A DNA stretch of 64,000 nucleotides, taken from positions 899 through 64,898 of the forward strand of contig CAYSLU010000013.1 in the NCBI GenBank assembly GCA_964431965.1, written 5' to 3'. Shown one piece after another: positions 30,141 through 53,104 of this stretch. The notes beneath the pieces were generated by a model. That model made no database searches. It saw only the letters and a program-made list of their open reading frames with translations, and was not told where the DNA came from. The position numbers were made by a program, and so were the translations under genes. This DNA is from an uncultured Verrucomicrobiota bacterium. GTDB lineage: Bacteria > Verrucomicrobiota > Kiritimatiellia > CAIKKV01 > CAYSLU01. Numbering within the stretch: position 1 is the stretch's first letter; each line of letters begins with the position of its first letter.

Positions 30141-30182
30141 GTCGCTCCTCGCCCCGCTGTTTCGCCGGGCTGCCCTTCCGCT

Positions 30183-30869: not shown

Positions 30870-31034
30870 ATCACTTCCTTCCTTCCGAATGCACCGGCCG
30901 GATTCCCGGGCTTGGGGTCGCCGGACAGCGAGAGCACAGGCGACGGCATTCCGATGTGTCTGCGGACACTAGATCGGCGGTTGGAGGAGATCAACGGGAA
31001 AGTCCGATCTGGAGCGGCTCGGAAGCCATCTGAG

Positions 31035-31946: not shown

Positions 31947-32060
31947 GACCGGCGGATGCTACGCTGGGACCCGCCGGGGATCAACGCGCGGATTGGCGTA
32001 GCAGCGGGGCATGCTGTGAGCTCGCTCTACGTGGCCGGCGAGCTCGCCCGGGTTCCGACA

Positions 32061-32696: not shown

Positions 32697-32769
32697 TACC
32701 GTTCACGGTATCGGCTCTGCGGGCGCGAAAGAACGATCGGGCGAAACGGATGCCGTCCGCAGTCACCTC

Positions 32770-33591: not shown

Positions 33592-33620
33592 GTGCGTGCT
33601 CTCCCGGCTTCGTGATTGCC

Positions 33621-35552: not shown

Positions 35553-35569
35553 GGCTGACCTCCCGCTAT

Positions 35570-36223: not shown

Positions 36224-36242
36224 GACAGTCCCTCCCTTTTCT

Positions 36243-37457
36243 TCATGGGGTCTCCGGTCTGCGGGACGGGGCATCGACCAGCTGGTCCAGCGGCGTGCCG
36301 TCGGCGGGCACGGCCTGGCGCCAGAAGTCCGCGCTGGCTTTCATTCGCGCGAGTATGTCATCCGGAGCGTCCGCCGTTCCGCTGAACGCCTCGATGGTCA
36401 GGAAGATATCCGCGCAGCGGGGCGGCATCAGCGGATCGGGCGGCCGCTCGTACGATGCCTTCAGGGCGCGCAGCACCCGGTGCGGGTCAATGATCCCGGC
36501 GGCGTTGTGCTCGGCGGTGAACGGCTTGTGGGCGGAGGATGTGCCATCTGTCTGCTGCAGGTGCACGATGGGCGAGTAGCAGCCCAGCCGGTCGAGCCAC
36601 TGATACGGATCACCGTCCTCGTGCGAGGCGAACAGGTGCGGATGCTCCGCGGCATCGGCCAGCACGTCGGCGACCGCGCGGTCCTGCCCGGCTGCGCCCG
36701 CGCCGGCCGCGGCGCGCAGCGCCGCCCGGGCGCGCTCGGATCCAGCCCATGGCATCCGGGCCGGCGGCGAGCCCGGCGCGCCGGCTCGCAGCCAGGCCGT
36801 CAGCGCCTCTCCGGTCGGCCGCAGGAATCGGCGCTGTCCGTACTGGTGCCCGACGTCGATGGTGACGTAGAGGGGGCAGCCGCGGCGGCGCAGGACGCCG
36901 GCGAGCATCGCGTGCGTGCCCGCGAGGGTCCATGGCGGCTGATGGGGCGAGTACATCTGCTCCACCCCCACGGTGGTGGCGCCCGCTTCGGCGCCATAGG
37001 CGGCGGCCTGCGCGAGCCGGTCGTACAGGTCCTGCTCCGCTTCCTCGAAGCGGGCCCGATCGTTCAGAACCGACTGCGGGAAGGCGTGGGCGAAGAAGCC
37101 CAGGCCCGCGTGGAGCCGACCGGCGGCCTCTGCCATGGGCTTGATCCACTGCGTCAGCAGGTGATCGCGCACCCGCCGGTCAGTGTGGGCCAGGCCGAGC
37201 GTCGCATAGGTTCCGTGCCCGGAGTAGAGGCTGACTACACGAGCGCCGGTCCGGGCCTGGGCCTCCTGGACGGCGGCGATCCAGTCGTGGCGATAGGCGG
37301 CCGGCGCGTACAGGGGATCGCACTCATTGTCCGCGCTGGCCTCGATGCAGGACAGGCCCAGTTCGTCGCGCACGATCCGGAACCACTCGTCGGGGGTCGT
37401 CCAGCGCTTTGAGGCAAAGCAGTTGTCGACGGACAGATGGATGCGCGGGTAGTTCAC
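36243..37457 (-). CDS. sugar phosphate isomerase/epimerase (xylose-isomerase-like TIM barrel)
   Basis: Composition and length (404 aa) fit the AP-endonuclease-2/xylose-isomerase-like TIM barrel family. It is the first gene of a minus-strand four-gene cluster. Confidence 0.65.
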   Translation of the reverse strand: MNYPRIHLSVDNCFASKRWTTPDEWFRIVRDELGLSCIEASADNECDPLYAPAAYRHDWIAAVQEAQARTGARVVSLYSGHGTYATLGLAHTDRRVRDHLLTQWIKPMAEAAGRLHAGLGFFAHAFPQSVLNDRARFEEAEQDLYDRLAQAAAYGAEAGATTVGVEQMYSPHQPPWTLAGTHAMLAGVLRRRGCPLYVTIDVGHQYGQRRFLRPTGEALTAWLRAGAPGSPPARMPWAGSERARAALRAAAGAGAAGQDRAVADVLADAAEHPHLFASHEDGDPYQWLDRLGCYSPIVHLQQTDGTSSAHKPFTAEHNAAGIIDPHRVLRALKASYERPPDPLMPPRCADIFLTIEAFSGTADAPDDILARMKASADFWRQAVPADGTPLDQLVDAPSRRPETP

Positions 37458-37680
37458 GCGGCATCGTCCGTCGTCGAGCTTCTTTCGCGTGAGCGATCAG
37501 TCAGCATGGCATCCGTGCACAGGCCGGTGGTTGAGACATCGGGCTAAAGTAGACTGCACGAACGGGTTTGGCAAGGACTGGAGAACTGGGGTCGTGCACG
37601 TCTCTCTGGACATTCGGCCGCACGGCTGGCTAGAGTGCGAGCGTGCAGCCGGAACGGAAACTGCGAAGACGGAGGATATC

Positions 37681-39765
37681 ATGAGCACATGGTGGAGGGT
37701 GGTGGCCATTGCGATGGCGGCGCTGATGGGCGTGGCTCCGTCAGCCGGGGCGGCCGGCGGCTTGCCGGGCGACGCCGAGGCGGCCACGCACGGCGACGAG
37801 GCGGCCACTCTTCAAGTGGTCAAGGAGACCGTCGAGAGCCAGCCGGACTTCGTGTTCCGGCAGTACAATCTGGCCGTGCTCTCGCACTATTCGTATCTGA
37901 TCGGCAGCGGCGGCGAGGCGATTGTGGTCGACCCGGCGCGGGATATCAGCCGGTACCTCAAGGACGCCGCGGAGCTGAAGCTGAAGATCAAGTACGTCTA
38001 CCTCACGCACTCGCACGCCGACTTCGTCGCCGGCCACATGGAGCTGCGCAAGGCCACCGGCGCGGAGGTGGTGATGAATGAGGACGCGGGCGCGCTCTTC
38101 CCGCACCGGCGCGTGCGCGAGGGCGACGAGATCCGGGTCGGCTCGGTGCGCGGGATCGTGATGGCGACGCCGGGCCACACGCCCGACGGCACGTGCCTGT
38201 GCGTGTTCCGGCCCGCGGATGCGCCGGCGCCGGCGTTCGTCTGCACGGGGGATACGCTGTTCATCGGCAGCGTCGGACGCCCCGACCTGATGGGCGAGGG
38301 CATGAGCGCGGCCACGCTGGCGCGCCAGGCGTTCCGGTCGTGGACCGACAAGCTGGCGAAGCTGCCCGATGCGACGCGGATCTTCCCGGCGCACGGCGCG
38401 GGGTCGCTGTGCGGCGCGCACCTGAGCGACAAGCCCGTGTCGACGATCGGCGAGCAGCGGCGGGAGAACCCGTACCTGCAGCACGCCGGCGTCAACTCGT
38501 TCGTGATGGCCATGATCGACGGCCTGCCGGCCGCGCCCCAGTACTTCGCCCACAACGCGAAGATGAATCACGACGGTCCTCCGCTCGTGGACTGGTCGGA
38601 GAGCCTGCCTCGCCCGCTCAAGCCGACGGTGGTCTCGGAACTGCCCGACATGGGCGCTTGGATTATCGACCTCCGGGACTCGGTGGCCTTCGCCGCCGGC
38701 CATCCGAAGGATGCGATCAACATCGGCATTCGCGGGCGCTTCGAGACGTGGACCGGCATGATGATCCCGTGGGGCGAGCCGATCGTGCTGGCCGGGTCCG
38801 ACGATGAGGTCAAGGAGGCGAGGTTCCGGCTGCACCGGATCGGGTACGACCGGCTGGCGGGCTACCTCGAGGGCGGAGTGGACGCGTGGAAGAAGGAGAA
38901 GCTGCGGATGCCGACGCTGACTCTGCTCCAGCCGGCGGATCTGTACGCACGCATGCGGGCCGGGACAGCCCCGGTGATCGTGGACGTACGCCTGCCGACC
39001 GAGTGGATGGGCCTGCGGATCGGCGATGTGCTGAACATTCCCGTCAACCGGCTGTTCATCGACGGCCGTCGGCTGGACTCCTCGATGCCTGTTCTGACGG
39101 TGTGCAACTCGGCTTATCGGTCGAGCATGGGGGCCTCGGTGCTGCAGAAGATGGGCTTCACGAACCTGTTCAACCTGGCAGGCGGCAGCGAGGCCTGGAT
39201 CGCCGCCGGGCTTCCGACTCTGAGCGCTCCGGCTGCTGGCGGGCCTGCGGCCCCGGCGGGCGCGGCCGCTTCCGGGAGCCGCGTCAATCTGCCGGAAGGA
39301 GTTGGCGCCCCGGATCTGGCGCAGCGGCTGATGGATCTGCCGGGAACGGTCGAGATCGTGGACATCCGGCCGGCTTGGCAGTTCGCCGAGTTCAGCATCC
39401 CGGGGTCCGCCAATGTGTCCGTCGAGCAACTGCTGCTGTCGCCGGTATCGCCCGCACCGGCTGACGCGCGACCGCTGGTCATCGTATCGCGCGACGGCTA
39501 TGTGGCCGCCGCCGCGGGCGGCGTGCTGAGCCAGAGAAGCGGGCGCTCGATCCGGTACCTGGTGGGAGGGGCTCAGCAGTACTACGATCAGGTGATGCGC
39601 CCCGCCGGCATCATGAGCGAGAAGTCGCCCCTGCCGGCCGTCTCCCCGCCGCCGGCGGCCCCGAAGCCCGGCGCCCCTGCTGCGGCGCCCCCGCCCGCGG
39701 CGCCCCCGTCGCCACCGGCTGCATCACCGCCGGTGGCTGCACCGAAGAAAAGCGCGGGCTGCTGA
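37681..39765 (+). CDS. secreted CstB-like persulfide dioxygenase (ETHE1-type MBL domain) fused to rhodanese domains, with a Pro/Ala-rich C-terminal tail
   Basis: The ATG at 37681 has GGAGG 6 nt upstream. A signal peptide is present (MSTWWRVVAIAMAALMGVAPSAGAAGG). The MBL motifs are YLTHSHADFVAGH and GDTLFIGSVGRPDL. Three rhodanese-like modules follow, and only the middle one has an active-site Cys (TVCNSAYRS). The C-terminus is PPAAPKPGAPAAAPPPAAPPSPPAASPPVAAPKKSAGC. Confidence 0.75.
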   Translation: MSTWWRVVAIAMAALMGVAPSAGAAGGLPGDAEAATHGDEAATLQVVKETVESQPDFVFRQYNLAVLSHYSYLIGSGGEAIVVDPARDISRYLKDAAELKLKIKYVYLTHSHADFVAGHMELRKATGAEVVMNEDAGALFPHRRVREGDEIRVGSVRGIVMATPGHTPDGTCLCVFRPADAPAPAFVCTGDTLFIGSVGRPDLMGEGMSAATLARQAFRSWTDKLAKLPDATRIFPAHGAGSLCGAHLSDKPVSTIGEQRRENPYLQHAGVNSFVMAMIDGLPAAPQYFAHNAKMNHDGPPLVDWSESLPRPLKPTVVSELPDMGAWIIDLRDSVAFAAGHPKDAINIGIRGRFETWTGMMIPWGEPIVLAGSDDEVKEARFRLHRIGYDRLAGYLEGGVDAWKKEKLRMPTLTLLQPADLYARMRAGTAPVIVDVRLPTEWMGLRIGDVLNIPVNRLFIDGRRLDSSMPVLTVCNSAYRSSMGASVLQKMGFTNLFNLAGGSEAWIAAGLPTLSAPAAGGPAAPAGAAASGSRVNLPEGVGAPDLAQRLMDLPGTVEIVDIRPAWQFAEFSIPGSANVSVEQLLLSPVSPAPADARPLVIVSRDGYVAAAAGGVLSQRSGRSIRYLVGGAQQYYDQVMRPAGIMSEKSPLPAVSPPPAAPKPGAPAAAPPPAAPPSPPAASPPVAAPKKSAGC

Positions 39766-39778
39766 GGAGGGAAATCTC

Positions 39779-40306
39779 ATGGCTTCCGATAATCGACATG
39801 TGCCGTACTGGTCGCCCTACGCGGCCGGTTTTGGCTTGGGCGTGACGCTGTTGCTGTCGTTCTGGCTGCTGGGCGCCGGGCTGGGGGCGTCGGGCGGCCT
39901 GGCGCGGATGGCCGCATGGGCTCAGCACCTGGTCGCTCCGGCGCGCGTGGAGGCATCGGCCTATTTCGGGCCGTGGTTCGCGGCAGGCGCGCCGCACGTG
40001 CTGGCCTATTACCTGGTATTCATGGCCGTCGGCGTGTTCGTCGGGGGGCTCCTCTCGGCGATCGGGTCGGGGCGCGTCCGCCCGATGGTGGAGCGCGGGC
40101 CGCGCGTGACGCCGGGCGTCCGCCTGGCGCTGGCGCTGGCGGGCGGGGTGATCGTGGGGTTCGCCAGCCGGCTGGCTCGGGGCTGCACCTCGGGGCAGGC
40201 CCTTACGGGAACCGCGATGCTCCTGACGGGAAGCGTGATCTTCCTGGTCTGCATCTTTATCGGCGCCTACCTGACGGCATTCTTTGTGCGGAGGGAATGG
40301 CTGTGA
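39779..40306 (+). CDS. YeeE/YedE-family (Sulf_transp, TsuA-like) sulfur-compound transporter, first half
   Basis: The protein is 175 aa with four TM helices and the conserved LARGCTSGQ cysteine motif. Its last 10 nt overlap the start of the next gene. Confidence 0.8.
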   Translation: MASDNRHVPYWSPYAAGFGLGVTLLLSFWLLGAGLGASGGLARMAAWAQHLVAPARVEASAYFGPWFAAGAPHVLAYYLVFMAVGVFVGGLLSAIGSGRVRPMVERGPRVTPGVRLALALAGGVIVGFASRLARGCTSGQALTGTAMLLTGSVIFLVCIFIGAYLTAFFVRREWL

Positions 40307-42339
40307 GCGGAACCCTTTACTCCCTCGACATGCTGAACACGCCGGTCGGATTCGCCATGGCCGGCCTGATCGGAATCCTGTTCGGCCTGTTCCTCGAGCA
40401 GGCCGGCTTCGGCAGCAGCCGGCGCCTCACGGGCATTTTCTACTTCCGGGACATGGCCGTGCTGAAGGTGATGTTCACGGCGGTGGTGACGGCCATGGTG
40501 GGCTACCCGTATCTGTCGGCGTTCGGCTGGGTGAAGCCGGGACAGCTCTATCTGCTGGACACGTACTGGGGCGCCCAGATCGTGGGCGGGCTCATCTTTG
40601 GCGTCGGCTTTGTGATGGGCGGCTGGTGCCCGGGCACCGCCTTTGTGGGGCTGGCCAGCGCCAAGTGGGATGCCTTGGTGTTCCTGGCTGGCGCCGTGGG
40701 CGGCTCCGTCCTGTTCAGCGAGGTGTATCCGGCGGTCGAGCGGCTGTACAACGGCCAGTGCGCCGGGCCGCTCTTCCTGGCCGACTCGCTTGGCGTCTCG
40801 ACGCCGGCTGTCGTGTTGGGCATGTGCATCGCGGCCGTGCTGGCGTTTGCGGGCGCGACATGGCTGGAGAGCCGGTTCGGCGAGCGTCCCCGGCCCGAGG
40901 CGGGGGAGCGGCTGCGGAACCGGCTGGCTGCGCTGGCGCTGATGGCGCTGGCGGCCGGCACGTTCGCGCTTCCGGCGCCCAGAGCGGCCGGCGGGGGAGA
41001 GGCGACGGCTACCGCGGCGCCGGCCCGCGGGGCGGCAGATGCCGGCCTTCTGGCTGCGGTGGACCGGGGCGAGGATCACGTGGAGCCGCTGGATCTGGCC
41101 GCGCGCATGATGGCCGGGGAGCCCGGCCTGACCGTGGTGGACATCCGGTCGCCTGAAGCGTTCTCCTCGTTTCACCTGCGCGGGGCGGTGAGCATCCCTC
41201 TCGACCGGCTGATGGCCGAGGCGGCGGGGCGGGTGCCGAGGACGGGCACGGTCGTCCTCTACTCAAACGGCACGACGCACGCGGCGCAGGCCTGGATGGC
41301 CCTGCGCCAGGCGGGGTGGACGAACGTGCTCGTGCTGACCGACGGGATTCTCGCGTTCTGGCGCGAGTGCCTGACGCCGCCCTCGCTCGCCGACGTCACC
41401 GACGAGCGGTCGGCGCGCGCGCAGTCCGCGGCATTCGCTGCTCGACGGGCGTGGTTTCTCGCCCCTGCAGCGCCGGCCAAGCCGGCGCCCCAGCCGCCGC
41501 CTCCTCCCGCGCTGGCAGAGCCCGGCCTCGCAGCCCGCGTGGTGTCCACGGACTGGCTGGCCTCCGAGCTCGACGATCCGCGGATCCGCATCGTCGACGC
41601 GCGGGCCAAGAGCACGGCGTATACGACGGCGCACCTTCCCGGCGCCGTGTACCTGGGATACGACGGGGTGCGCGGGACCGTGGAAGGCAGCCCCACGATG
41701 GTGCTTCCGGCCGCCGAGCTGGCCGGAGTCTTCGGTCGGCTGGGGATCGCCACGGGCCACACCGTGATCGTGTACAGCGACACGATTCGCGACGCGACGC
41801 TGGTCGGCATGGCGCTCGCGCGGGTGGGGCATCGCTCGTTCGCGATTCTTCACGGCGGGTACGACAAGTGGGTGGCCGAGAAGCGGCCGGTGACGTCGGC
41901 CATCCCGGTGGTTGCGGCGGCGCGCTACGAGCCGACTCCGGGAGCGGATGCCTTCACGGCTTCGACGGAGGACGTCGCGGCCGCGATGCGGGACGGCCGA
42001 ACGGCGATTCTCGATGTGCGTCCGGCGGAGTTCTTCACCGGGAAGAAGACCGACGAGGCGCGAGCGGGGCACATTCCCGGCGCCGTGAACCGCGAGTTCA
42101 AGATGGACCTGCTTCCGGAGAAGGAGCTGTGGCTGTCGGCGGATCTGATCCGCGCCGCCTACGAGAAGCTGGGCATCCGCGAGGATACGCCCGTGATCGT
42201 GCACTGCCGGACCGGGCACCAGGCGAGCCAGACGTATTTCACCCTGAAGCACCTGCTGGGACTGAAGGACGTCCGCTGGTACGACGGCTCCTGGGCCGTG
42301 TGGGCCGCGCGCCCCGACCTGCCGGTCGCGGGCCCCTGA
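40297..42339 (+). CDS. YeeE/YedE second half fused to three rhodanese domains (a single domain plus a tandem thiosulfate-sulfurtransferase-like pair)
   Basis: The ATG is at 40297 (MAVSGTLY...). The membrane half carries the GGWCPG cysteine motif. Rhodanese 1 has no Cys. Rhodaneses 2 and 3 form a TST-like tandem with the catalytic loop VHCRTGHQAS. The 807-aa track ORF starts earlier in noise. Confidence 0.75.
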   Translation: MAVSGTLYSLDMLNTPVGFAMAGLIGILFGLFLEQAGFGSSRRLTGIFYFRDMAVLKVMFTAVVTAMVGYPYLSAFGWVKPGQLYLLDTYWGAQIVGGLIFGVGFVMGGWCPGTAFVGLASAKWDALVFLAGAVGGSVLFSEVYPAVERLYNGQCAGPLFLADSLGVSTPAVVLGMCIAAVLAFAGATWLESRFGERPRPEAGERLRNRLAALALMALAAGTFALPAPRAAGGGEATATAAPARGAADAGLLAAVDRGEDHVEPLDLAARMMAGEPGLTVVDIRSPEAFSSFHLRGAVSIPLDRLMAEAAGRVPRTGTVVLYSNGTTHAAQAWMALRQAGWTNVLVLTDGILAFWRECLTPPSLADVTDERSARAQSAAFAARRAWFLAPAAPAKPAPQPPPPPALAEPGLAARVVSTDWLASELDDPRIRIVDARAKSTAYTTAHLPGAVYLGYDGVRGTVEGSPTMVLPAAELAGVFGRLGIATGHTVIVYSDTIRDATLVGMALARVGHRSFAILHGGYDKWVAEKRPVTSAIPVVAAARYEPTPGADAFTASTEDVAAAMRDGRTAILDVRPAEFFTGKKTDEARAGHIPGAVNREFKMDLLPEKELWLSADLIRAAYEKLGIREDTPVIVHCRTGHQASQTYFTLKHLLGLKDVRWYDGSWAVWAARPDLPVAGP

Positions 42340-42352
42340 GGGGGGAGATGGC

Positions 42353-43579
42353 ATGCAGCCCGATGACGTTGCTGGACCGCCGCTCCCGGAGCGCCACCCC
42401 GCCGTGCGGGAGAAGGCGCGGATCGTGCGGGTCGAGGTGTCGCCCGCGACGCTGATCCAGATCATCCTCGTCGTGGCCGGCGTGTGGCTGCTGATCCGGC
42501 TTTGGCCGGTCTTCCTCGTTCTGGTCGTCGCGCTCCTCATCGTCGGAACGATGAGTCCGGCGGTCCGGTGGATGGAGGCGCGCCGCGTCAGCCGCGGCCT
42601 GGGGATAGCCGTCGTTTTCAGCATCCTCCTCCTCGTTGCGATTCTCGCCCTGACGCTGACGGTTCCCTCGCTGGTGGTGCAGGTCTCCGAGCTGGTCGAG
42701 AAGGAGCCCGCGTTCCGCGCGCACCTGGCGGACCATCTCGCGCGCTCCAACCTGACCGCGCCGCTGGCGGGCTGGCTGCAGACGGTCACGTACGACGATC
42801 CCCTGAGTGCCGTCAGCGCGTCGGCGTTCGCCTTCCTGCGTCGCATCTTCGAGATCGCCGCATACGGCGCGAGCGCGATCTTCCTCGCGCTGTACGTCAT
42901 GATCGACCGCGACCGGCTTCGCGGCGGGCTGTTCGCGGCCGTTCCGCGGTCGCATCACATCCGCCTCGCGCGTGTCATGATGAACCTGGAGACGATCGTC
43001 GGCGCGTACATCCGGGGGCAGATGATGACCTGCCTGCTCATGTCGGTCTTCGCGTTCATCCTGCTGGTGGCCTGCGGCGTCCCGAACGCGCTGGCGCTGG
43101 CCGTTCTGGCGGGGCTTGTGGATGTCCTGCCGTACGTGGGCGCCCTCCTGGCGATGGGGCCGATGGTCCTTGCGGCGCTGGCGCGCGGCCCGGCCGTCGC
43201 GGCGATCGTCCTGCTGGTCATGTTCGCATACCAGGAGTTCGAGAGCCGCGTGCTGGTTCCCCGAATCTATGGGCGGACGATGAGGCTTCCGTCGTCGGTC
43301 GTGCTCTTCGCGCTTCTGACGGGCGGGATGATGATGGGGGTGCTCGGCGCGCTCCTGGCGCTCCCCGTGGCGGCGACCGTCATGATGCTCATCGAGGAGC
43401 TTCGCGTCGAGTTGCCGGGCCAGCAGGAGCAGGTTGCGGACGTGGAGCAGCGGGTCGGCGACGCGCGCGCGGAGGAAGAGTACGAGCGCCGGACAGAGGG
43501 CGTGCCGGCCGAGCAGGCCGCCGCCATTGCCGTCGAAATGTCAGACGACCGGCGCAAGGAGCATGAAGAGGACCCATGA
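42353..43579 (+). CDS. AI-2E family (PerM/UPF0118) transporter
   Basis: It has eight predicted TM helices in the typical AI-2E topology and an acidic C-terminal tail. Length is 408 aa. Confidence 0.8.
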   Translation: MQPDDVAGPPLPERHPAVREKARIVRVEVSPATLIQIILVVAGVWLLIRLWPVFLVLVVALLIVGTMSPAVRWMEARRVSRGLGIAVVFSILLLVAILALTLTVPSLVVQVSELVEKEPAFRAHLADHLARSNLTAPLAGWLQTVTYDDPLSAVSASAFAFLRRIFEIAAYGASAIFLALYVMIDRDRLRGGLFAAVPRSHHIRLARVMMNLETIVGAYIRGQMMTCLLMSVFAFILLVACGVPNALALAVLAGLVDVLPYVGALLAMGPMVLAALARGPAVAAIVLLVMFAYQEFESRVLVPRIYGRTMRLPSSVVLFALLTGGMMMGVLGALLALPVAATVMMLIEELRVELPGQQEQVADVEQRVGDARAEEEYERRTEGVPAEQAAAIAVEMSDDRRKEHEEDP

Positions 43580-43778
43580 CCGGAAGGCCCGAATCCTGGC
43601 GGTTGCGATCCGCCCCGGTCTGCCCGTCATCCTCTGCTCGGGGTTCAGCGAGCGGACCCAGCACCTGTCGGCGCGCGACGGCGTGGCGCGGGTGCTGGAC
43701 AAGCCCGTGAGCGCGAAGGAGCGGGCGCAGGCGCTCCGAGAGACGCTCGACGGTGCCGTCGCCGCCGCGAGCGCGTGA
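43563..43778 (+). pseudogene. orphan C-terminal fragment of a receiver (REC) domain
   Basis: The ORF tail RILAVAIRPGLPVILCSGFSERTQHLSARDGVARVLDKPVS matches only the beta4-alpha4-beta5 part of a receiver (T/S, then K in ...KPV). No N-terminal acidic pocket is encoded upstream. Confidence 0.3.
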
Positions 43779-43935
43779 CCCGCTACAGCTTCCCGAGCGC
43801 CCCGCCCTGTCCACCGCGCGGCCATCCGTGGGCGGGCTCCACATCGGCTGTCGCCGTCTTGGCGATGGAGAGACGGTTTGCGCTTCGTCCGCCGCGCCCA
43901 ACAGCCGGTCTCAACCATCACGGCTCACGCGACGG

Positions 43936-43965
43936 TTGACTCAGCTTCCTGGCACGTCGTAGGCT
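43936..43965 (+). promoter_or_regulatory. candidate promoter for the GT2 gene
   Basis: TTGACT, an 18-nt spacer and TAGGCT lie about 90 nt upstream of the ATG at 44054. The same stretch, CTGGCACGTCGTAGGCT, also partly matches a sigma-54 -24/-12 element (TGGCACG-N4-TTGCW). Confidence 0.3.
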
Positions 43966-44053
43966 CCCGGACAGCTGGCAGGATGCGTTGCATGCTGTGG
44001 AGTCTGACTCGTGCGCGAGAGAGCTTCCTTCACCGAAGCGCAATGGATGGACC

Positions 44054-45025
44054 ATGACTGATACTCCGCTGATTTCAATCATCATTCCGGCGCGCAATGA
44101 GGAAGGCAGTATTCCGCGCTTGGCGGACGAGGTGCACGCGGCTTTGGATGGGTTGCCGTACCGCTTTGAGTTCATCGTGGTCGACAACCACAGCACCGAC
44201 CGGACGGGCGCGCTGGTGAAGGACCTCTGCCGGCGCGATCCACGCTGGAAGTACCTGCGGTTCAGCCGCGACTTTACGGTTGAGATGTCCATCACGGCCG
44301 GCTACCGCTACGCCTCGGGTGACGCCATGGTTGTCCTGTACTCCGACCTTCAGGATCCTCCGGCCGCCATTCCCAGCCTGATTGCCAAGTGGCGCGAGGG
44401 CCATGACGTCGTGTACGGCGTGCGCACCCGGCGCCCGGGCGACCCCGCATGGCGCAATCTGGCGGTGAAGATCGCCTATCGGCTGATCACGTGGTTTTCG
44501 GACGTGAAGATCCCGACGGACGCCGGCGATTTCCGGCTCATCACGCGGCAGGTCCGCGACGCCCTCGAGCAGTGCGGCGAGAACAACCGGTACATGCGCG
44601 GCCTGATCGCCTGGCTGGGATTCCGTCAGGCGGGAGTTCCCTATGAACGCCGGCCCCGCCAGGAGGGCGTCAGCAAAGCGCCCTTCCGGGCCCTGCTGAT
44701 GTTCGCGTTCAACGCCATCACCAGCTTCTCGTTGAAGCCGCTTCGGCTCTTCATGTTCATGGGTGTCATCCTGGTCGCGCTGTCGGCTGTGGCCGCCGTG
44801 GTCTACACCGTGCTCTTCTTCTTCGCTTCGCCCCCGCCCGGCATAACGACGCTGATCATTCTCACGTTTCTCGGCATTGGCCTCAACAGCCTGGGCATCG
44901 GCGTGCTGGGCGAGTACATCGGGCGGACCTACGCGGAGGTCAAGCGGCGTCCCCTCTACATTGTCGAAGAGGCTGTGAATCTGCCGACGCAAAGCGGGTA
45001 CGACAGAACCGGGACTCGCGGGTGA
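44054..45025 (+). CDS. GT2-family polyprenol-phosphate glycosyltransferase (GtrB/ArnC/DPM1-like)
   Basis: ISIIIPARNEE...FIVVDNHSTD is the GT2 DXD region. Two C-terminal TM helices are typical of GtrB-like enzymes. Confidence 0.85.
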   Translation: MTDTPLISIIIPARNEEGSIPRLADEVHAALDGLPYRFEFIVVDNHSTDRTGALVKDLCRRDPRWKYLRFSRDFTVEMSITAGYRYASGDAMVVLYSDLQDPPAAIPSLIAKWREGHDVVYGVRTRRPGDPAWRNLAVKIAYRLITWFSDVKIPTDAGDFRLITRQVRDALEQCGENNRYMRGLIAWLGFRQAGVPYERRPRQEGVSKAPFRALLMFAFNAITSFSLKPLRLFMFMGVILVALSAVAAVVYTVLFFFASPPPGITTLIILTFLGIGLNSLGIGVLGEYIGRTYAEVKRRPLYIVEEAVNLPTQSGYDRTGTRG

Positions 45026-45316
45026 CGGCTCACACATTGACGCTCTTGCTGATCATGTTTCTGGTTGTGTACGCTGTGACCGTCTGCTCCCGCGCCAGAT
45101 CCGCCGACTCGGCGCAAGCAGGATGCCTGCGCCGGAGCGCAAAGGTGCAGCCTTCAAGAGTGCGACCAAGGACTATCACGATGGCGACACGCTGGCTCGA
45201 TGAGATGGCCGGGTTGCGCCTGAGCTCCAGGCTTTGGCGATAGCTTGAGCCTGATGGCGAGTGGTACGCTCCCCTTGCTGTTGGGGCGGACGTGATGGAT
45301 TGCTTTGAGCTGAGGC

Positions 45317-46507
45317 ATGAAGGCCGGTGGATCTGAGACACCAATCATGAAAATCGCACGCATCGCACCGTTGAGTTACACGCCGGGGAAACTGGGCTAT
45401 TTCTCGTTCGTCCGGGGCGGGGTGGGGGCGGATTACCATCAGGGGCCGCAGTTTCACGTGCGGGCGAGTGGGGAGCTGCTGGTCTACTGGGGCGCCTATG
45501 ACTTCGACGAGTGCTCCAATGATTCGGTCTCGCTCTACTCGGTCTCGCGCGATCGCGGTCTGACGTGGTCGGATCCGAACCTTTTCATGGCCGATTACCC
45601 GGGCGGGCCGCAGCGGGTGATGCTATTGCGGCTGCGCGATACGAGCCGGACGCTGATGGTCGTCACGCAGACCAAGATGGACGAGATCACGGTCGATCCG
45701 GCGCGTCGCGTCGCCACGGCCGGAAGCAACTATTTCCGGAGCCGCACCCGGTTCCATCTGCGCCGGTCGGCTGACGGCGGACGGGGGTTCGATCGCGGCG
45801 AGGAGCTGTCCCACCGGCTGATCATGGGGGGGCAGGAGCTGCCCGGCGTCGGCTGCTACGGGGCGGCCGAGGAGCTCGTGCAACTGCAGAGCGGACGCAT
45901 CGTGGCGGCGTTCATGTACCTGGATCCGGATCGGTCGGACGCGCGGGCGCAGACCGTTGCGGCCCAGCATTACACGGTCGCATGCCTGCTGTCCGACGAC
46001 GAGGGGCGCACCTGGAGGCGGGGCGGCGAGATCACCGTCGATACTCCGCGCGGAGTCATGGAGCCGCAAATCGTGGAGACGGCCCCGGACCGCCTGTTCT
46101 GCCTGTTTCGCACCAAGGGCGGCTATCTGTACCAGACGTCATCGGCCGATGGGGGGCAGACCTGGAGCGCCTCGACACCGTCGGCGCTGCCGGCGCCGGA
46201 GTCGATCGCGCGCATGATCCGGCTGCTGAGCGGCAACCTGCTGGTGGTGTGGAACAACGTCTCGTCGGTCACCCAGCACCCCCGCCATCCGCTGGTGGCG
46301 GCCGTTTCCTCCGACGGCGGCGCAACGTGGTCGGCTCCCAGGAGTCTGGCCGACGAGACCGGCGCCAACCAGCTGAGCAACCACGGCGTGGTGCAACTGG
46401 ACGACGGCCGCATTCTGGTCGGGATCTCGCACTACCACGCGATCCGTCCGATGGCCAGCGATCTGGACATGGCGATCTTTGACGAGGAATGGCTGTTGCG
46501 CGGCTGA
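45317..46507 (+). CDS. BNR/Asp-box repeat protein, sialidase (GH33)-like
   Basis: Four Asp-box motifs are present (SVSRDRGLTWS, SDDEGRTWR, SADGGQTWS, SSDGGATWS). The start may instead be the ATG at 45347 (MKIARIA...). Confidence 0.7.
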   Translation: MKAGGSETPIMKIARIAPLSYTPGKLGYFSFVRGGVGADYHQGPQFHVRASGELLVYWGAYDFDECSNDSVSLYSVSRDRGLTWSDPNLFMADYPGGPQRVMLLRLRDTSRTLMVVTQTKMDEITVDPARRVATAGSNYFRSRTRFHLRRSADGGRGFDRGEELSHRLIMGGQELPGVGCYGAAEELVQLQSGRIVAAFMYLDPDRSDARAQTVAAQHYTVACLLSDDEGRTWRRGGEITVDTPRGVMEPQIVETAPDRLFCLFRTKGGYLYQTSSADGGQTWSASTPSALPAPESIARMIRLLSGNLLVVWNNVSSVTQHPRHPLVAAVSSDGGATWSAPRSLADETGANQLSNHGVVQLDDGRILVGISHYHAIRPMASDLDMAIFDEEWLLRG

Positions 46508-46800
46508 AGGCTTCGACGGCGTGGGTGTTTCGGTAGTGCCTCCCGGTGGGGCACAAGCATCCCGGCTGGCGTCCGTGAGAGGACACGAGCCTGGAGGCTC
46601 GTGCCACGGGAGGTGGCGCACGGTCCCGATGGGCAGCCCCGCGGAGGGGCGCCGGCCTCGTCGCCCGATCCGGTGAGAGCGCCCGGGCGGCGAAGGGGAA
46701 TCCGGGTAGGCGCCGCCTGCCGGGCGGCGGCCCGGGCGCGCGATAGCGTGGTTGTGATGAGGCGCTGAGAAACAGAAGCCAGACTCAGGTGGAGTGAGTA

Positions 46801-47709
46801 ATGAACGATTATCTGTTGTCCGTCCTGCTGGGGGTCGTTGAGGGCCTGACGGAGTTCCTGCCGGTCAGTTCCACCGCTCACCTGCGCATTACGCAAGCGC
46901 TCCTCGACGTTGATCTGAGCAGCGGCTACTGGAAGATGTATACCATCGTCATCCAGTTGGGCGCGGTCCTCTGTCTCCCCCTGTACTTCCGGAGCCGCAT
47001 CGTGCAATGGATGAAGGCCTTCCCGCGCGGAACGCAGGGACGCCACGCCATCTGGAGCCACCCCTTCGCTCTGACGGCGTATGCCTTTGCATGCACGATG
47101 GTGCTCTCTCTGCTGTCCGTCAAACTCATCGGCAAGCACCTGGAGAGCATCGTCCTGATGGCTCAGTCCCTGATCGTGGGCGGCATCGTCATGGGAGTCG
47201 TGGACGCGATCTTCGGCCGGCCGCGGGCCGGGGCGCCGAAATCCGAGGGCGGTGCGAGCGCTGGATCGCGAACGCAGTCGGTCGATGAGATGACCGTTCC
47301 ACAGGCGATCTGGATCGGCTGCTGCCAGGCGTTGTCGGCGGTCTTTCCCGGGACGTCGCGGTCCATGGCGACGATCGCGGCCGGACAGATTGCCGGCATG
47401 TCGCGGCCGGCCGCGCTGGAGTTTTCGTTCCTGCTGTCGATTCCGACCATGGTGGCGGCGACGGGCTACGACCTGATCGAGTCCATGCGCCACATGGACG
47501 GCGGCAGCACGATGGGCGTGGGGCCCAGCAACGTCCACGAGTGGATCGTTCTGGCGATCGGGTTCGTGACATCGTTTATCGTGGCGTACGCGGTGGTGGT
47601 CTGGTTCATGAACTGGGTGCGCCAGCGCGGATTCCTGCCGTTCGCCATCTACCGGGTTGTGATCGGCCTGTCCGTCTGGTGGTGGGCGGCTCATCGGTCG
47701 ATCGGGTGA
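46801..47709 (+). CDS. uppP: undecaprenyl-diphosphate phosphatase
   Basis: GVVEGLTEFLPVSSTAH and the later PGTSRSMATI block are the two conserved BacA/UppP motifs. Length is 302 aa with eight TM helices. Confidence 0.9.
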   Translation: MNDYLLSVLLGVVEGLTEFLPVSSTAHLRITQALLDVDLSSGYWKMYTIVIQLGAVLCLPLYFRSRIVQWMKAFPRGTQGRHAIWSHPFALTAYAFACTMVLSLLSVKLIGKHLESIVLMAQSLIVGGIVMGVVDAIFGRPRAGAPKSEGGASAGSRTQSVDEMTVPQAIWIGCCQALSAVFPGTSRSMATIAAGQIAGMSRPAALEFSFLLSIPTMVAATGYDLIESMRHMDGGSTMGVGPSNVHEWIVLAIGFVTSFIVAYAVVVWFMNWVRQRGFLPFAIYRVVIGLSVWWWAAHRSIG

Positions 47710-47836
47710 ATGGGCCACGATGCCCCCGCTGTTTTCGCTCCCCGCATTGAACCTCCTGCGATCTCCGCGCGTTTGTACGGCTAGTCCACCCGGGCGGGTG
47801 GGCCCGTGGCGCGAACGCATTTCCGAGGAGCGGCTC

Positions 47837-50005
47837 ATGAGATCAGCGGGACATGCAGGGCGGCGGATGGCGGCGGGTATCCTGGCGGGCGCGGCAGCGA
47901 TCGGCGGGGCGCGGGACGGGCTGGGGGCCGGCGGTACGAACGCCCCGGCAGGTACCCATGCGGCGACACGCGCGACGGAGGCCGGGCATCTGGTGATCGT
48001 CACGGCCAGCCGCTTCGAGCGCCAGTGGCAGGAGCTGCCGGTCAGCGCGAACAGCATCCCCGGCGAGACCATCCGGATCGACCGGGCGGCGCGGACGGTG
48101 CCTGAGGCGCTGAAGGGAGTCCCCGGCGTCATGGTCCAGAAGACGGCCCAGGGCCAGGGCTCTCCCTACCTGCGCGGATTCACCGGCTTCCGCACCCTCT
48201 TCCTCATCGACGGCGTCCGGCTCAACAACTCGGTCTTCCGGGACGGCCCGAACCAGTACTGGAGCACGGTCGATCCGCTTAGCCTCAAGGGGATCGAACT
48301 CGTCAAGGGCCCGGCGTCGGTTCTCTACGGCAGTGACGCCATCGGCGGGGCCGCGAACGCGCTGACCGCCAGCCCGGAGTTCGGCGATGGATTCCTGTGC
48401 CGGCGCCGGCTTTACTATCGCGGGGCCACGGCCGATCGCTCGACGGTTGCGCGTGCGGAAGCCAGCGCGGCGTCCGGGCAGAAAGCGGGCGCGGTGGCCG
48501 GGATATCGTGGAAGGACTTTGGCAACGTTCGCGCGGGCGGAACGGTCGGCGAGCAGCCCAAGACCGGCTACAGCGAGCTGGATTGGGACGCGAAGGTCGC
48601 CTACCGCCCCGACCGGCGGTCGATGCTGACCGTGGCGCATCAGTCCGCCGATCAGGACGACGTCTGGCGCGCGCACTCGACGGCGTACGGGACCTGGTGG
48701 CGGGGCGCGAAGCCGGGCTCGGACCAGCAGCGCATCCTCGACCAGACGCGCCACCTGACGTATGCGCAGTATGACGTCGGCGACCTCGGCTCGTTTGCAG
48801 ATCGCATGAAAGTGGGCGTCTCGCACCAGGTACAGGACGAGGACCAGTACCGGGTGCGAAAGGACGGGGCCGCCGACAGCCAGGCGTTCTCCGTGAACAC
48901 CGTCGGCTCGTTCATTCAGTTCGAGAGCCCGAGCAGCCTCGGCAACTGGGTGTACGGCGCCGAGTACTACCACGACGGCGTCGACTCGGTTGGGCTCAAG
49001 TACGCGGCCGACGGGTCCGTGAAGAGCCGGGCCGTGCAGGGGCCCGTGGCGGACGACGCCACCTACGACACGCTCGGCGCCTTCGTGGAGGACACGGTGC
49101 CGCTGGGCGGCCGCGTCAGCTTCGTGCCCGGCCTCCGCTACACCTACGCAGCAGCCGACACCGAGCAGGCGGCGGATCCACTGACCGGGAAGGCCATGCC
49201 CGTGGACGGCGACTGGGACACCGTGGTCGGCAGCGCCCGCCTGCTCGTCGCGCTTGACGAGCAGCAGCTCTGGCACGCCTTCGCGGGGGCGTCCCAGGGC
49301 TACCGCGCGCCCAATCTCTCCGATCTGACGCGCTTTGACATCGCCCGCTCGGGCGAGCTCGAGACGCCGGCGCCCGACCTGGACCCGGAGCGGTATGTGA
49401 CGTACGAGACGGGCCTCAAGGGACTGGCCGGCCGGTGGCAGGCGCAGGCGGCCTACTACTACACCGACATCCGGGACATGATCGTGCGGGTCCCGACCGG
49501 CCGCACGGTGGACGGCGCGACCGAGGTGACCAAGAAGAACTCCGGGAACGGCTATGTTCATGGAGTGGAAGCAGAGGGGCGGTACCGGATCGTCGAGGAT
49601 TTGGCCGTGTTCGGCTCCGCCTCGTGGGCGCGGGGCGACGTGGACACCTACGCCACCTCCTCGCCGGACCTGTCCCGGGAGCCGATCGACCGCCTGATGC
49701 CCCCCGCGGGGACGCTGGGGCTGCGGTGGGATCTGGTTCGCGGCTTCTGGCTGCAGGGGGAGTGCACGGCGGCGGTCAAGCAGACCCGACTGTCGCCGGG
49801 CGACGTCGCCGACACGCAGCGCATCCCGTCCGGCGGCACGCCGGGCTACACGGTGTGCGAGGTGCGCGCCGGCTGGGACGTCTCCAAGGATCTCCGCCTG
49901 GCGGTCGCATGCGAGAACGTGGCGGACGTCGACTACCGGATCCACGGATCCGGCGTCAACGAGACCGGCCGCAACTTCGTCCTCAGCGCCGAATACGCGT
50001 TCTGA
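47837..50005 (+). CDS. TonB-dependent outer-membrane receptor
   Basis: It has a plug domain (GVMVQKTAQGQGSPYLRGF...LIDGVRLN), a long beta-barrel and a C-terminal aromatic residue (EYAF). GAGGAG precedes the ATG at 47837. Confidence 0.85.
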   Translation: MRSAGHAGRRMAAGILAGAAAIGGARDGLGAGGTNAPAGTHAATRATEAGHLVIVTASRFERQWQELPVSANSIPGETIRIDRAARTVPEALKGVPGVMVQKTAQGQGSPYLRGFTGFRTLFLIDGVRLNNSVFRDGPNQYWSTVDPLSLKGIELVKGPASVLYGSDAIGGAANALTASPEFGDGFLCRRRLYYRGATADRSTVARAEASAASGQKAGAVAGISWKDFGNVRAGGTVGEQPKTGYSELDWDAKVAYRPDRRSMLTVAHQSADQDDVWRAHSTAYGTWWRGAKPGSDQQRILDQTRHLTYAQYDVGDLGSFADRMKVGVSHQVQDEDQYRVRKDGAADSQAFSVNTVGSFIQFESPSSLGNWVYGAEYYHDGVDSVGLKYAADGSVKSRAVQGPVADDATYDTLGAFVEDTVPLGGRVSFVPGLRYTYAAADTEQAADPLTGKAMPVDGDWDTVVGSARLLVALDEQQLWHAFAGASQGYRAPNLSDLTRFDIARSGELETPAPDLDPERYVTYETGLKGLAGRWQAQAAYYYTDIRDMIVRVPTGRTVDGATEVTKKNSGNGYVHGVEAEGRYRIVEDLAVFGSASWARGDVDTYATSSPDLSREPIDRLMPPAGTLGLRWDLVRGFWLQGECTAAVKQTRLSPGDVADTQRIPSGGTPGYTVCEVRAGWDVSKDLRLAVACENVADVDYRIHGSGVNETGRNFVLSAEYAF

Positions 50006-50050
50006 TGCGGGCCCCGCGCGACGCGGCGGCCGCCCCGGGCCGGCGCGCAC

Positions 50051-50067
50051 GGGATGGCCGCCATCCC
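50051..50067 (+). terminator. perfect 17-nt palindrome GGGATGGCCGCCATCCC after the TonB receptor gene, a possible terminator hairpin
   Basis: It lies 46 nt past the stop at 50005 and is followed by TTG only. Confidence 0.25.
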
Positions 50068-50205
50068 TTGCCGCCGGGGCCCGCTTTCCCGGTTGCGTCC
50101 GGTAGTCGGCCGGACTAGCCTGCATCCAATCCGGGACCGGGTGCAGCCGCGCGGATCGGCCGAGCGCGTCTTTCGGGTCTCTGACCGGGGGCATCGGAAG
50201 GGCCT

Positions 50206-51438
50206 ATGAAACCGACATCGGGCGGGGCGGATCACCGGCATGCGTCTCCCGAGCGGCGGCGCAGCATGCTCGGGCTGGTCGGCATGATCGTGCTCGTCGG
50301 CATGGGCGAGCACATGGCCGAGCGCTTCTTGCCGCTGTATCTGCAGCAGCTGGCGCAGGCATCGACCGCCGTTCTGGCGATCGGGCTCCTAGCGGGGATG
50401 GACGACCTGCTGTCCGCGCTCTACTCCTTCCCGGGCGGCTACTTGAGCGACCGGCTGGGCACGAAGCGCGCGCTCCTGTTCTTCAATGCCCTGTCGATGG
50501 CCGGCTACCTGTGCGTCATCCTGATCCGGTCCTGGTGGGCGGTCCTGATTGGCGCGGCCCTCTTCATCTCGTGGTCGGCCATCTCGCTTCCGGCCACGAT
50601 GGACCTGCTCGCCCGGATCGTGCCGAAGAACCGGCGCACCATGGGCGTATCGATGCTGGCGCTGGTCCGGCGCGTGCCGAAGATGCTGGGGCCCGTCGTC
50701 GGCGGAGCGTGCATCGCGGCCTGGGGCGTCGAGCAGGGCGTGCGCGCGGCGTTCATCCTGGCGCTGGGCCTCGCACTGGCGGCTTCCGTGCTGCAGCAGG
50801 TGATGATCGCCGAGGATCCGAAGGGCGACCGGACGGCCGAGGCGAATCCGCTGCGGCTGTGGCGCGAGATGCCGGCCGGCCTGAGGAACCTGCTGTGGTC
50901 GGACATCCTGATCCGCTTCTGCGAGCGCATCCCGGATGCGTTCGTGGTCATCTGGGCTACGCGGTACATCGCGAGCCCCGTGTCGGAGCTGGCCTTCGGC
51001 TGGCTGTCCGCCCTCGAGAACGTCACGGCCGTCCTGGTGTATGTGCCCGTGGCGTACATGGCGGACCGCTTCGGAAAGAAGCCGTTCGTGCTGATCACCT
51101 TCGCGTTCTTCACCTGCTTCCCCCTGGCGCTGCTGCAGGCGCACTCGCTGGCCCCCCTGGCGGCGGCGTTCGTGCTGCGCGGGCTCAAGGAGTTCGGCGA
51201 GCCGACGCGCAAGGCGCTGATCATGGATCTGGCGCCGGAGGGGCGCAAGGCGGCGATGTTCGGTCTCTACTACCTCATCCGCGACGTGCTCGTCGCGTTC
51301 GCGGCCTTCGGCGGCGCCCTGCTGTGGCGCGTGTCGCCGGAGCTGAACCTGAAGGTCGCGTTCGGTTTCGGCGTGCTGGGCACGCTCTGGTTCGCGTGGC
51401 GCGGGCGCGACTGCACGGCCGGGCGGCCGGCGGCATGA
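50206..51438 (+). CDS. MFS transporter
   Basis: It has twelve predicted TM helices and an MFS-like loop motif GYLSDRLGTKR between TM2 and TM3. Confidence 0.8.
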   Translation: MKPTSGGADHRHASPERRRSMLGLVGMIVLVGMGEHMAERFLPLYLQQLAQASTAVLAIGLLAGMDDLLSALYSFPGGYLSDRLGTKRALLFFNALSMAGYLCVILIRSWWAVLIGAALFISWSAISLPATMDLLARIVPKNRRTMGVSMLALVRRVPKMLGPVVGGACIAAWGVEQGVRAAFILALGLALAASVLQQVMIAEDPKGDRTAEANPLRLWREMPAGLRNLLWSDILIRFCERIPDAFVVIWATRYIASPVSELAFGWLSALENVTAVLVYVPVAYMADRFGKKPFVLITFAFFTCFPLALLQAHSLAPLAAAFVLRGLKEFGEPTRKALIMDLAPEGRKAAMFGLYYLIRDVLVAFAAFGGALLWRVSPELNLKVAFGFGVLGTLWFAWRGRDCTAGRPAA

Positions 51439-51470
51439 CGTCGGCGTCTTGTCCTTTGAGGAGTGGTGGG

Positions 51471-51491
51471 GATACGAGACAGCTCGACGGA
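51471..51491 (+). promoter_or_regulatory. third copy of the 21-nt motif GATACGAGACAGCTCGACGGA, about 100 nt upstream of the NYN gene
   Basis: The same 21-mer occurs at 32106-32126 and 32411-32431 inside the tandem repeat units. Confidence 0.5.
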
Positions 51492-51587
51492 CAACGATCG
51501 GCGTCGTGCCAAAAGGATGTCGACGCCTCGGCGCACGGCTTGTAGAGTGACGGCAAATCGGCGCCGTGCCGGTGTTGGAGATCCACG

Positions 51588-52412
51588 ATGAGCCATCAGT
51601 CCGAGACGAGAAACATGGCGGTGTTCTGCGACTTCGAGAATATCGCGCTGGGCGTGCGGGACGCCAACTACGCCAAGTTCGACATCGACAAGGTGCTCGA
51701 GCGCCTGCTCCTCAAGGGCAACATCGTGGTGAAGAAGGCCTACTGCGACTGGAGCCGCTACAAGGAGTTCCGGCCCTCGATGCACGAGGCGTCGTTCGAG
51801 CTCATCGAGATCCCGCACCTGCGGCAGTCGGGCAAGAACTCCGCGGACATCCGGATGGTCGTGGACGCGCTCGACCTGTGCTACACGAAGGGGCACGTGG
51901 ACACCTTCGTGATCGTCAGCGGCGACTCGGACTTTTCGCCGCTGGTGAGCAAGCTGCGCGAGAACGACAAGACGGTGATCGGCGTGGGGGTGCGGAATTC
52001 GACGTCCGACCTGCTCATCGCGAACTGCGATGAGTTCATCCACTACGACGACCTGGTGCGCGCGCAGCCGGCCCGCGCGCCGGCCCCCCGGTCCGCCTCC
52101 GGGCGGAGCCGCTCCGCGGCGGCGGGCGAGGCCGAGAAGCCGGCCGCGCCATCGGCGGACTCGAAGGACGACGCGCTGAACCTGATCCTCGAAACCTACG
52201 ACGCGCTGGTCGAGGAGCGCGGGGAGGGGGAGAAGATCTGGGGCTCGATGATCAAGCAGACCCTGAAGCGCCGCAGGCCGGGCTTCAGCGAGTCCGCGTA
52301 TGGGTTCCGGACGTTCGGACTGCTCCTCGAGGAGGTTGAGGCGCGCGGGCTGGTGAAGCTCGAGCGCGACGAGAAGTCCGGCGGCTTCATCGTTCGACGC
52401 GTGCGGCCGTGA
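51588..52412 (+). CDS. NYN-domain (PIN-like nuclease) protein with a C-terminal OST-HTH/LOTUS domain
   Basis: MAVFCDFENI...VIVSGDSDFSPLV is the NYN/LabA signature. The C-terminal ~80 aa (LILETYDAL...IWGSMIKQTLKRRRPGFSESAYGFRTFGLLLEEVEARGLV) fit OST-HTH. Confidence 0.8.
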   Translation: MSHQSETRNMAVFCDFENIALGVRDANYAKFDIDKVLERLLLKGNIVVKKAYCDWSRYKEFRPSMHEASFELIEIPHLRQSGKNSADIRMVVDALDLCYTKGHVDTFVIVSGDSDFSPLVSKLRENDKTVIGVGVRNSTSDLLIANCDEFIHYDDLVRAQPARAPAPRSASGRSRSAAAGEAEKPAAPSADSKDDALNLILETYDALVEERGEGEKIWGSMIKQTLKRRRPGFSESAYGFRTFGLLLEEVEARGLVKLERDEKSGGFIVRRVRP

Positions 52413-53104
52413 CGGACAGCGGGAGTGGCGCCATGGACCTGACGCTCAATCCGGTTGAAGCCCGAGTGCTGGCGTGCCTGGTGGAGAAGTCGATCACGAC
52501 GCCGGAGTACTACCCGCTCACGCTGGGCGCGCTGACCGCCGCCTGCAACCAGAAGTCGAACCGCGATCCCGTGATGCAGGTCGGGGAGTCGGATGTTGTC
52601 CGCGCGCTGGACGGGTTGCGCGACCGCAAGCTGGCCTGGTCGGTGGCGCTGGCCGGAAGCCGGGTCCCGAAGTACCGGCACAGCCTGACGGACGTGATCC
52701 TGCTGACGCCGCCGCAGGTGGCCGTCCTGTGCGAACTCATGTTGCGCGGCGCGCAGACGGCGGCCGAGCTGCGACTTCGCGCGGGTCGGATGGCGGCGTT
52801 CGCGGACGTGGCGGCCGCGCAGGCGACGCTGCAGGAGCTGGCGAGCCGCGAGGCGGGCGCGCTGGCGGCTCGGATGCCCCGCCAGCCGGGCCAGCGGGAG
52901 GAGCGTTACCTGCACCTCCTGTGTGGCGGCGTACCGGCGGAGTCCGCGGCCGGCGCGGCGCTGCCGGCGCCGGAGCCGGCGCGGGTGGCGGTCATGGCCG
53001 AGAACGAGCGCCTGGGCGCGTTGGAGAGCCGCGTGGCCGCGCTGCAGGACGAGCTGGAGCAGCTGAAGGCCCGGTTCGGCGATTTCATCAAGCAGTTCCA
53101 GTGA
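52409..53104 (+). CDS. YceH/DUF480-family protein
   Basis: LNPVEARVLACLVEKSITTPEYYPLTLGAL is the YceH signature. It overlaps the NYN gene stop by 4 nt. Confidence 0.8.
   Translation: MTDSGSGAMDLTLNPVEARVLACLVEKSITTPEYYPLTLGALTAACNQKSNRDPVMQVGESDVVRALDGLRDRKLAWSVALAGSRVPKYRHSLTDVILLTPPQVAVLCELMLRGAQTAAELRLRAGRMAAFADVAAAQATLQELASREAGALAARMPRQPGQREERYLHLLCGGVPAESAAGAALPAPEPARVAVMAENERLGALESRVAALQDELEQLKARFGDFIKQFQ

Follow-up and report, generated by a model that had tools for sequence, protein, structure and literature searches.

An exact 21-nt sequence shared by a lineage-specific, repeat-bearing insertion and the region upstream of an NYN-domain gene in an uncultured bacterium

Bacterial MITEs, for example Correia/CREE, ERIC and RUP, have been reviewed together with the features that define MITE, REP/BIME and BOX sequences (PMC3184786). 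Here we describe a tandem-repeat array lying between two genes of an uncultured bacterium, together with a 21-nt sequence that occurs in each repeat unit and once more, 19 kb away, in front of another gene. A contiguous match of this length recalls IstR-1/tisB, in which a trans-encoded antisense RNA reportedly shows a long perfect match of about 21 nt. The whole stretch of DNA that was analysed, 64 kb in length, is called the window throughout. The identity between the two loci is real, sharp-edged and isolated, and the stretch bearing the repeats is an insertion when compared with the nearest relative.

Both strands of the window were scanned for the 21-mer, GATACGAGACAGCTCGACGGA. Exactly three exact copies are present, all of them on the plus strand. 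Two lie in the array, one per repeat unit, and the third stands alone by the NYN-domain gene, exactly where a first-pass annotation of this DNA had placed them. The features referred to in the text are as follows.

31035-31946, minus strand: EamA/DMT transporter gene (Pfam PF00892), the downstream neighbour of the insertion
31991-32784, no strand assigned: lineage-specific insertion of 794 nt, which holds the whole array and is missing from the closest relative
32054-32695, no strand assigned: tandem array of two units of 305 and 304 nt plus the 33-nt start of a third unit
32106-32126, plus strand: 21-mer of tandem unit 1, antisense to the flanking GDPD and EamA genes
32129-32189 and 32194-32254: palindrome core arms of unit 1
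32411-32431, plus strand: 21-mer of tandem unit 2, the duplicate of the unit 1 copy
32434-32494 and 32499-32559: palindrome core arms of unit 2
32770-33591, minus strand: GDPD-family phosphodiesterase gene (Pfam PF03009), the upstream neighbour of the insertion
50206-51438, plus strand: MFS transporter gene (Pfam PF07690), ending 33 nt before the solitary 21-mer
51471-51491, plus strand: solitary 21-mer (copy 3) in the 149-nt MFS-NYN intergenic region, sense to both MFS and NYN
51588-52412, plus strand: NYN-domain gene (Pfam PF01936), which overlaps the following DUF480 gene

The solitary copy follows the MFS stop codon (51436-51438) and lies 97 nt ahead of the NYN start codon (ATG at 51588), a distance previously given as about 100 nt. 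In sensitive BLAST comparisons the identity ends sharply on both sides and comprises exactly 21 nt. Neither sensitive BLAST nor gapped local alignment extended the match significantly into the flanks, which had already been described as unrelated in the third copy. The search for mismatch variants that had been proposed was run to three mismatches on both strands of the 64-kb window and yielded no further match, and sub-words of 10-14 nt occur elsewhere in the window only as single chance hits. An apparent similarity, with gaps, linking the right flank of the insertion to the 40-60 nt that follow the solitary 21-mer was discarded, being no better than that of the best unrelated window tiles.

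With respect to the neighbouring genes, the copies at the two loci have opposite orientations. Since GDPD and EamA are both encoded on the minus strand, the 21-mer is antisense in the repeat locus, and it is sense at the NYN locus. In independent k=31 Logan assemblies from the same strain, the copy at NYN recurs together with its two flanks at 100% identity (contig L001), and the unit 1 copy is also present (contigs L004 and L005). Thus the sharing of the 21-mer is not an assembly artefact.

The solitary 21-mer lies in the apical and 3' part of a weak hairpin (51437-51505), the stability of which is not significant (z -1.3), and the MFS-NYN intergenic region as a whole does not fold significantly better than shuffled sequences. 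The peptide DTRQLDG can be read from the 21-mer in open frames at both loci; a coding role was rejected on third-position GC. An ORF of 36 codons (51435-51545) begins in an ATGA overlap with the MFS stop and runs through the 21-mer. It was judged to be non-coding because its third-position GC is 0.67 (hand count), compared to about 0.9 in real genes.

The downstream gene had been named NYN/OST-HTH in the first-pass annotation. Pfam confirms the NYN domain, while the OST-HTH domain stays below the Pfam threshold (E ≤ 0.001 not reached). The NYN protein is 67-76% identical in the best 80 homolog loci (L006-L085), which belong to Verrucomicrobiota, Planctomycetota, Pseudomonadota, Bipolaricaulota and others and show almost no conserved neighbourhood; a DUF480 gene is also present in only two of these 80. 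None of these loci has the 21-mer near NYN; the best match in them has at least five mismatches and is not specific to the upstream region. An alignment of 15 NYN upstream regions, from homologs that are distant (at most 76% amino-acid identity), revealed no shared block.

The MFS gene shows a pattern of its own. Over positions 50255-51418 its DNA is 83-85% and its protein 85-91% identical to genes of unrelated genomes, in which the flanking genes are different ones, and the homology ends about 20 nt before the stop codon. These relatives come from organisms of 60-63% GC, hits with an NCBI name including Kiritimatiellia, Latescibacterota and Verrucomicrobiota, and the MFS homologs are not syntenic with NYN. 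Judged from the sequences, the similarity may reflect either unusually strong conservation or horizontal spread. Elsewhere in the window, the minus strand holds a single ORF of 1416 aa (7432-11682) with glycogen-synthase, DUF3417 and alpha-glucan phosphorylase domains, which adjoins GH57, GT4 and debranching-enzyme genes. At 90% identity, every protein of the window that was checked is a singleton or a near-singleton, and according to this the organism is without a close sequenced relative.

The array is a tandem duplication, whose units (32054-32358 and 32359-32662) are 96% identical. Each unit is opened by the hairpin GGGCGGTCTCGCCGAGACCGCC, and a scan of the window for the hairpin GGCGGTCTCGCCGAGACCGCC with up to three mismatches detected it only at the three unit boundaries of the array. 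Each unit further contains a long imperfect palindrome, the 61-nt core arms of which are 75% complementary. The predicted folding energy of a unit is -181.6 kcal/mol for the plus strand (z -7.5 versus shuffles) and -191.2 kcal/mol for the minus strand (z -8.2 versus shuffles). Mismatches in the core arms comprise four A:C versus one G:T, and both units fold better on the minus strand; this is a weak hint that a minus-strand RNA would be the folded species of the array. The 21-mer lies immediately next to the core palindrome, where pairing is comparatively sparse. Its mean unpaired probability is predicted to be 0.44-0.47 versus 0.27-0.29 for the whole RNA, which places it among the top 5-7% of the folding windows.

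Logan contigs that enter the repeat (L002-L005 and L086-L089, from five runs) all end inside it, at approximately 32090-32167 and 32518-32621. As every short-read contig ends within the repeat, the unit number of 2.1 is taken from the NCBI assembly alone.

The closest relative that was found (EamA with 74% amino-acid identity; Logan contigs L153 and L154) is syntenic for the genes encoding, in this order, aldolase, DUF7657, GDPD, EamA, a 466-aa protein and a GFO_IDH oxidoreductase, and its DNA is 75-82% identical in the flanks. EamA relatives in JGI metagenomes reached at most 56% identity and showed no synteny. In the relative only 34 nt separate the GDPD stop from the EamA start, and positions 31991-32784 of the window are without counterpart (compared with L153 4869-4879). 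Because GDPD and EamA are so close together in the relative, the repeat-bearing stretch represents a lineage-specific insertion, the pre-insertion state of which is still visible there. The 19 nt that end with the EamA ATG are conserved in the relative as well, and on the EamA side of the insertion a vestige of the former GDPD stop region can still be made out. The insertion replaced the last GDPD codons, so that the protein now ends in RTFTPAP in place of RTFRAEDAH.

Both edges of the insertion carry the 5-nt direct repeat GGCGT (31995-31999 and 32780-32784), a candidate target-site duplication; a match of 5 nt with a few nt of positional slack could, however, also come from chance or microhomology. 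Terminal inverted repeats are absent: one end compared to the reverse complement of the other scores 8.5, and the mean for shuffles is 9.1. No second copy of the unique flanks of the insertion exists in the window. Beyond EamA, on its far side from the insertion, there is a further lineage-specific indel (30141-31043, 903 nt, compared with L153 5827-5906). Its 228-aa ORF has an N-terminus resembling a signal peptide and matches no family; a transposase was considered for this ORF and rejected, the product being a signal-peptide protein.

Relatives of the motif and of the element were searched for in large collections. The exact 21-mer had no hit in 185,579 GTDB species genomes (roughly 600 Gb), in JGI metagenomes or in IMG/VR. 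The repeat unit was translated in six frames to catch spurious ORF calls and matched nothing among 5.8 billion proteins, and the insertion had no match among plasmids and phages. When the repeat was compared by blastn and nhmmer to the loci retrieved by then, only contigs of the same strain matched. Rfam 15 gave no match in the window at the gathering score, and an E-value scan produced only sub-threshold noise at both loci. A consensus for a sigma-70-like promoter or an intrinsic terminator was not found at either site. Neither a donor element nor a transposase nor a second full copy was detected in the window, in the 154 retrieved loci or in the protein, plasmid, phage, GTDB, JGI and IMG/VR searches.

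The two array copies of the 21-mer arose by one tandem duplication, and therefore only one independent coincidence has to be accounted for. As a null, 300 windows were simulated with codons shuffled within coding sequences and intergenic DNA resampled by a first-order Markov model. In an all-against-all comparison this null yields about 0.043 maximal exact repeats of at least 21 nt, of any kind, per 64-kb window. For an intergenic/intergenic pair or for a GC content of at most 58% (the 21-mer has 57%) the extrapolated expectation is about 3e-4 to 3e-3. Exact repeats of 20-21 nt are to be expected in roughly 4% of 64-kb windows from a 69%-GC genome, and they call for an all-against-all null, not for a single-word probability. 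The chance of 1e-8 calculated in the first-pass annotation applies to a word chosen beforehand and overstated the case by four to six orders of magnitude. An example of a long chance match is found in the window itself: the unrelated exact 20-mer CGGCGCTGCCGGCGCCGGAG (90% GC), located in coding DNA at 46182-46201 and 52956-52975, is common to a BNR-repeat gene and the DUF480 gene.

A pure coincidence, by which two unrelated intergenic sequences happen to have 21 bases in common, is unlikely, but it deserves to be taken seriously. It would be in line with the all-against-all null, with the 20-mer in the same window, with the lack of residual similarity in the flanks and with the absence of the 21-mer from all of the genome, metagenome and viral collections. 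Nevertheless, chance matches are expected in GC-rich coding DNA, and the expectation for intergenic DNA or for 57% GC is far lower, as given above. Within the about 8.4 kb of intergenic DNA in the window, the real exact matches between intergenic sequences comprise sixteen 12-mers, two 13-mers and one 14-mer, followed directly by the 21-mer. Moreover, one of the partners belongs to the single most unusual element of the window. The 21-mer is a true outlier among intergenic matches and probably not a product of chance. The margin over chance is thousands-fold, not hundred-million-fold. Scanning many windows will meet such cases, and chance becomes a possible origin if very many windows have been screened.

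Our preferred explanation, with a probability of about 0.4, takes the 21-mer to be a relic at the DNA level, stemming from whatever process made or moved the insertion. Among the options named in the first-pass annotation was a footprint of repeat generation, and this option gains support from the location of the repeat within a 794-nt insertion absent from the closest relative. Under this explanation, a non-coding, hairpin-rich and tandemly duplicated insertion would have been acquired recently between GDPD and EamA, and the 21-mer at NYN would be a second copy, made only once, of a short segment from its interior. A fragment of that element might have stayed behind at a second site, or a short tract might have been copied to, from or between the two loci. 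Since 21 of 21 positions are identical and the flanks are completely unrelated, we infer that the two loci share the sequence by copying, not by chance, and that convergent or independently selected sites are not the source. Because one partner sits inside the recent insertion, this copying would belong to the history of the insertion.

Several observations argue for a relic. The 21-mer is an outlier among intergenic matches (next longest 14 nt, with the low intergenic null given above); the array stretch is absent from the contigs of the relative and has 5-nt direct repeats at its edges; and no degenerate copies, no conservation at NYN and no promoter, terminator or Rfam signal were found. 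In addition, the 21-mer is a poorly paired appendage lying outside the core palindrome. Its features do not suggest a selectively maintained binding site, and the copy would have no regulatory role of its own. On the other side, a relic is made less convincing by the failure to find a donor element, a transposase or a second full copy. A relic would normally decay and the 21-mer is perfect; therefore it must be recent or constrained. As a relic and nothing more, the 21-mer would make for an ordinary finding: an uncultured high-GC bacterium with a palindromic insertion specific to its lineage, and one stray fragment of that insertion.

A role as a trans-acting antisense RNA is doubtful, more so than coincidence. 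In this model a minus-strand transcript of the insertion would pair perfectly with the mRNA of the MFS-NYN intergenic region through its two 21-mer complements, and the NYN-DUF480 message would as a result differ in stability or be processed differently, for instance through cleavage specific for double strands. The orientation of the genes makes the two transcripts complementary. Because of these orientations any action of the 21-mer would consist in RNA-RNA pairing, which is the only functional mechanism that would fit the anatomy. Predictions place no terminator between GDPD and EamA and give the duplex an energy of -41 kcal/mol, and the 21-nt segment is among the less paired parts of the RNA, with a predicted unpaired probability of 0.45-0.47 compared to a mean of 0.29. 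The hairpin mismatches together with the folding energies also slightly favour the minus strand as the folded strand.

Several points weaken the model. An orientation of this kind would by itself arise in half of all cases, the site lies 97 nt away from the start codon and leaves the ribosome-binding site uncovered, and the strand bias amounts to four mismatches versus one. Transcription of either partner is only predicted from gene orientation. Furthermore, bacterial trans-encoded small RNAs normally pair through short imperfect seeds. A little less probable still is the complete scenario, in which the insertion would be expressed together with GDPD and EamA and act in trans on the leader of the NYN-nuclease/DUF480 message; more remotely, it might give rise to an orphan guide-type RNA with an unlinked effector. 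If antisense pairing did take place, a regulatory RNA-target pair would have been born in one step from a recent DNA insertion.

An operator or promoter element, as suggested in the first-pass annotation, is improbable. A protein-binding site common to NYN and to a plus-strand transcript of each unit would agree with the position of the solitary copy about 100 nt upstream of a gene start and with a small inverted repeat, CGAG-N4-CTCG, which can be read directly within the 21-mer. Nevertheless, neither a further copy nor a degenerate variant was found in the about 8.4 kb of intergenic DNA or anywhere else in the 64 kb, and at the repeat locus the 21-mer points away from both neighbouring genes, in an orientation opposite to that at NYN. 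Promoter consensus sequences were not found, and the 80 homolog loci and 15 aligned upstream regions gave no indication of conservation ahead of NYN. Independent binding sites would not be expected to be identical at 21 of 21 positions.

A recombination core, the other suggestion made for this sequence, can be set aside: the copies are all in direct orientation and 21 bp is a typical length for an att core, but the 19.3-kb segment that they would bound as a mobile unit (32127-51470) contains ordinary metabolic and transport genes and lacks any integrase, recombinase or transposase, it does not differ in composition from the remainder of the window, with a flat GC content and without a break between the copies, the units continue for 52 nt ahead of the 21-mers and for 264 nt after them, a pattern of simple duplication and not of stacked elements, and the relative keeps synteny across the left boundary. 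CRISPR or guide-RNA, retron and ribozyme readings were rejected as well, as neither a partner gene nor an Rfam signal was present. Searches with Pfam and NCBIfam models, covering nearly all ORFs of the window, detected no genes for TnpB, IscB, Cas or Argonaute-like proteins. Two window proteins of 383 and 569 aa have no family assignment; both are encoded far from the two loci.

Among known systems, the guide RNAs of TnpB/IscB (omega-RNA) and of TldR resemble the locus in having a long structured scaffold beside a match of about 20 nt to a distant upstream site. They differ from it, as no effector gene was detected in the window and no Rfam match was obtained. IstR-1/tisB is similar in that about 21 contiguous nt are complementary to the untranslated leader of a different transcript. 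Such pairs, however, come from a single locus with defined promoters and terminators, whereas the loci compared here are 19 kb apart, with no transcription signals found and no toxin gene.

The insertion considered as a DNA element is closer to the small intergenic repeats. Like the REP/BIME and pneumococcal BOX elements, it has a GC-rich hairpin of 21-22 nt that punctuates a modular tandem array (PMC3184786). The array lies between co-directional genes, with which it is likely to be co-transcribed, and could affect mRNA stability. In contrast to REP/BIME sequences, which are dispersed in many intergenic regions, the hairpin occurs in the window only inside this array, and the units measure 305 nt, not 35-45 nt as in REP/BIME and BOX.

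Terminal inverted repeats, which are expected for MITEs, are lacking, and the insertion is not filed as a member of this group. With 794 nt (about 490 nt when the duplication is collapsed) it is also larger than most MITEs, its internal structure is a tandem duplication, and no other copy of the insertion and no cognate transposase were found in the window, the retrieved loci or public collections. In other respects it is like MITEs: the insertion is non-coding and intergenic, a few hundred bases long and without an ORF, and it would form a very stable RNA or DNA hairpin (PMC3184786). It is present in one lineage and absent from the same site in the relative, and short direct repeats stand at its edges. 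While not a demonstrated member of any of these families, the insertion behaves much as do the small non-autonomous repeats of intergenic DNA that belong to the MITE, REP/BIME or BOX type.
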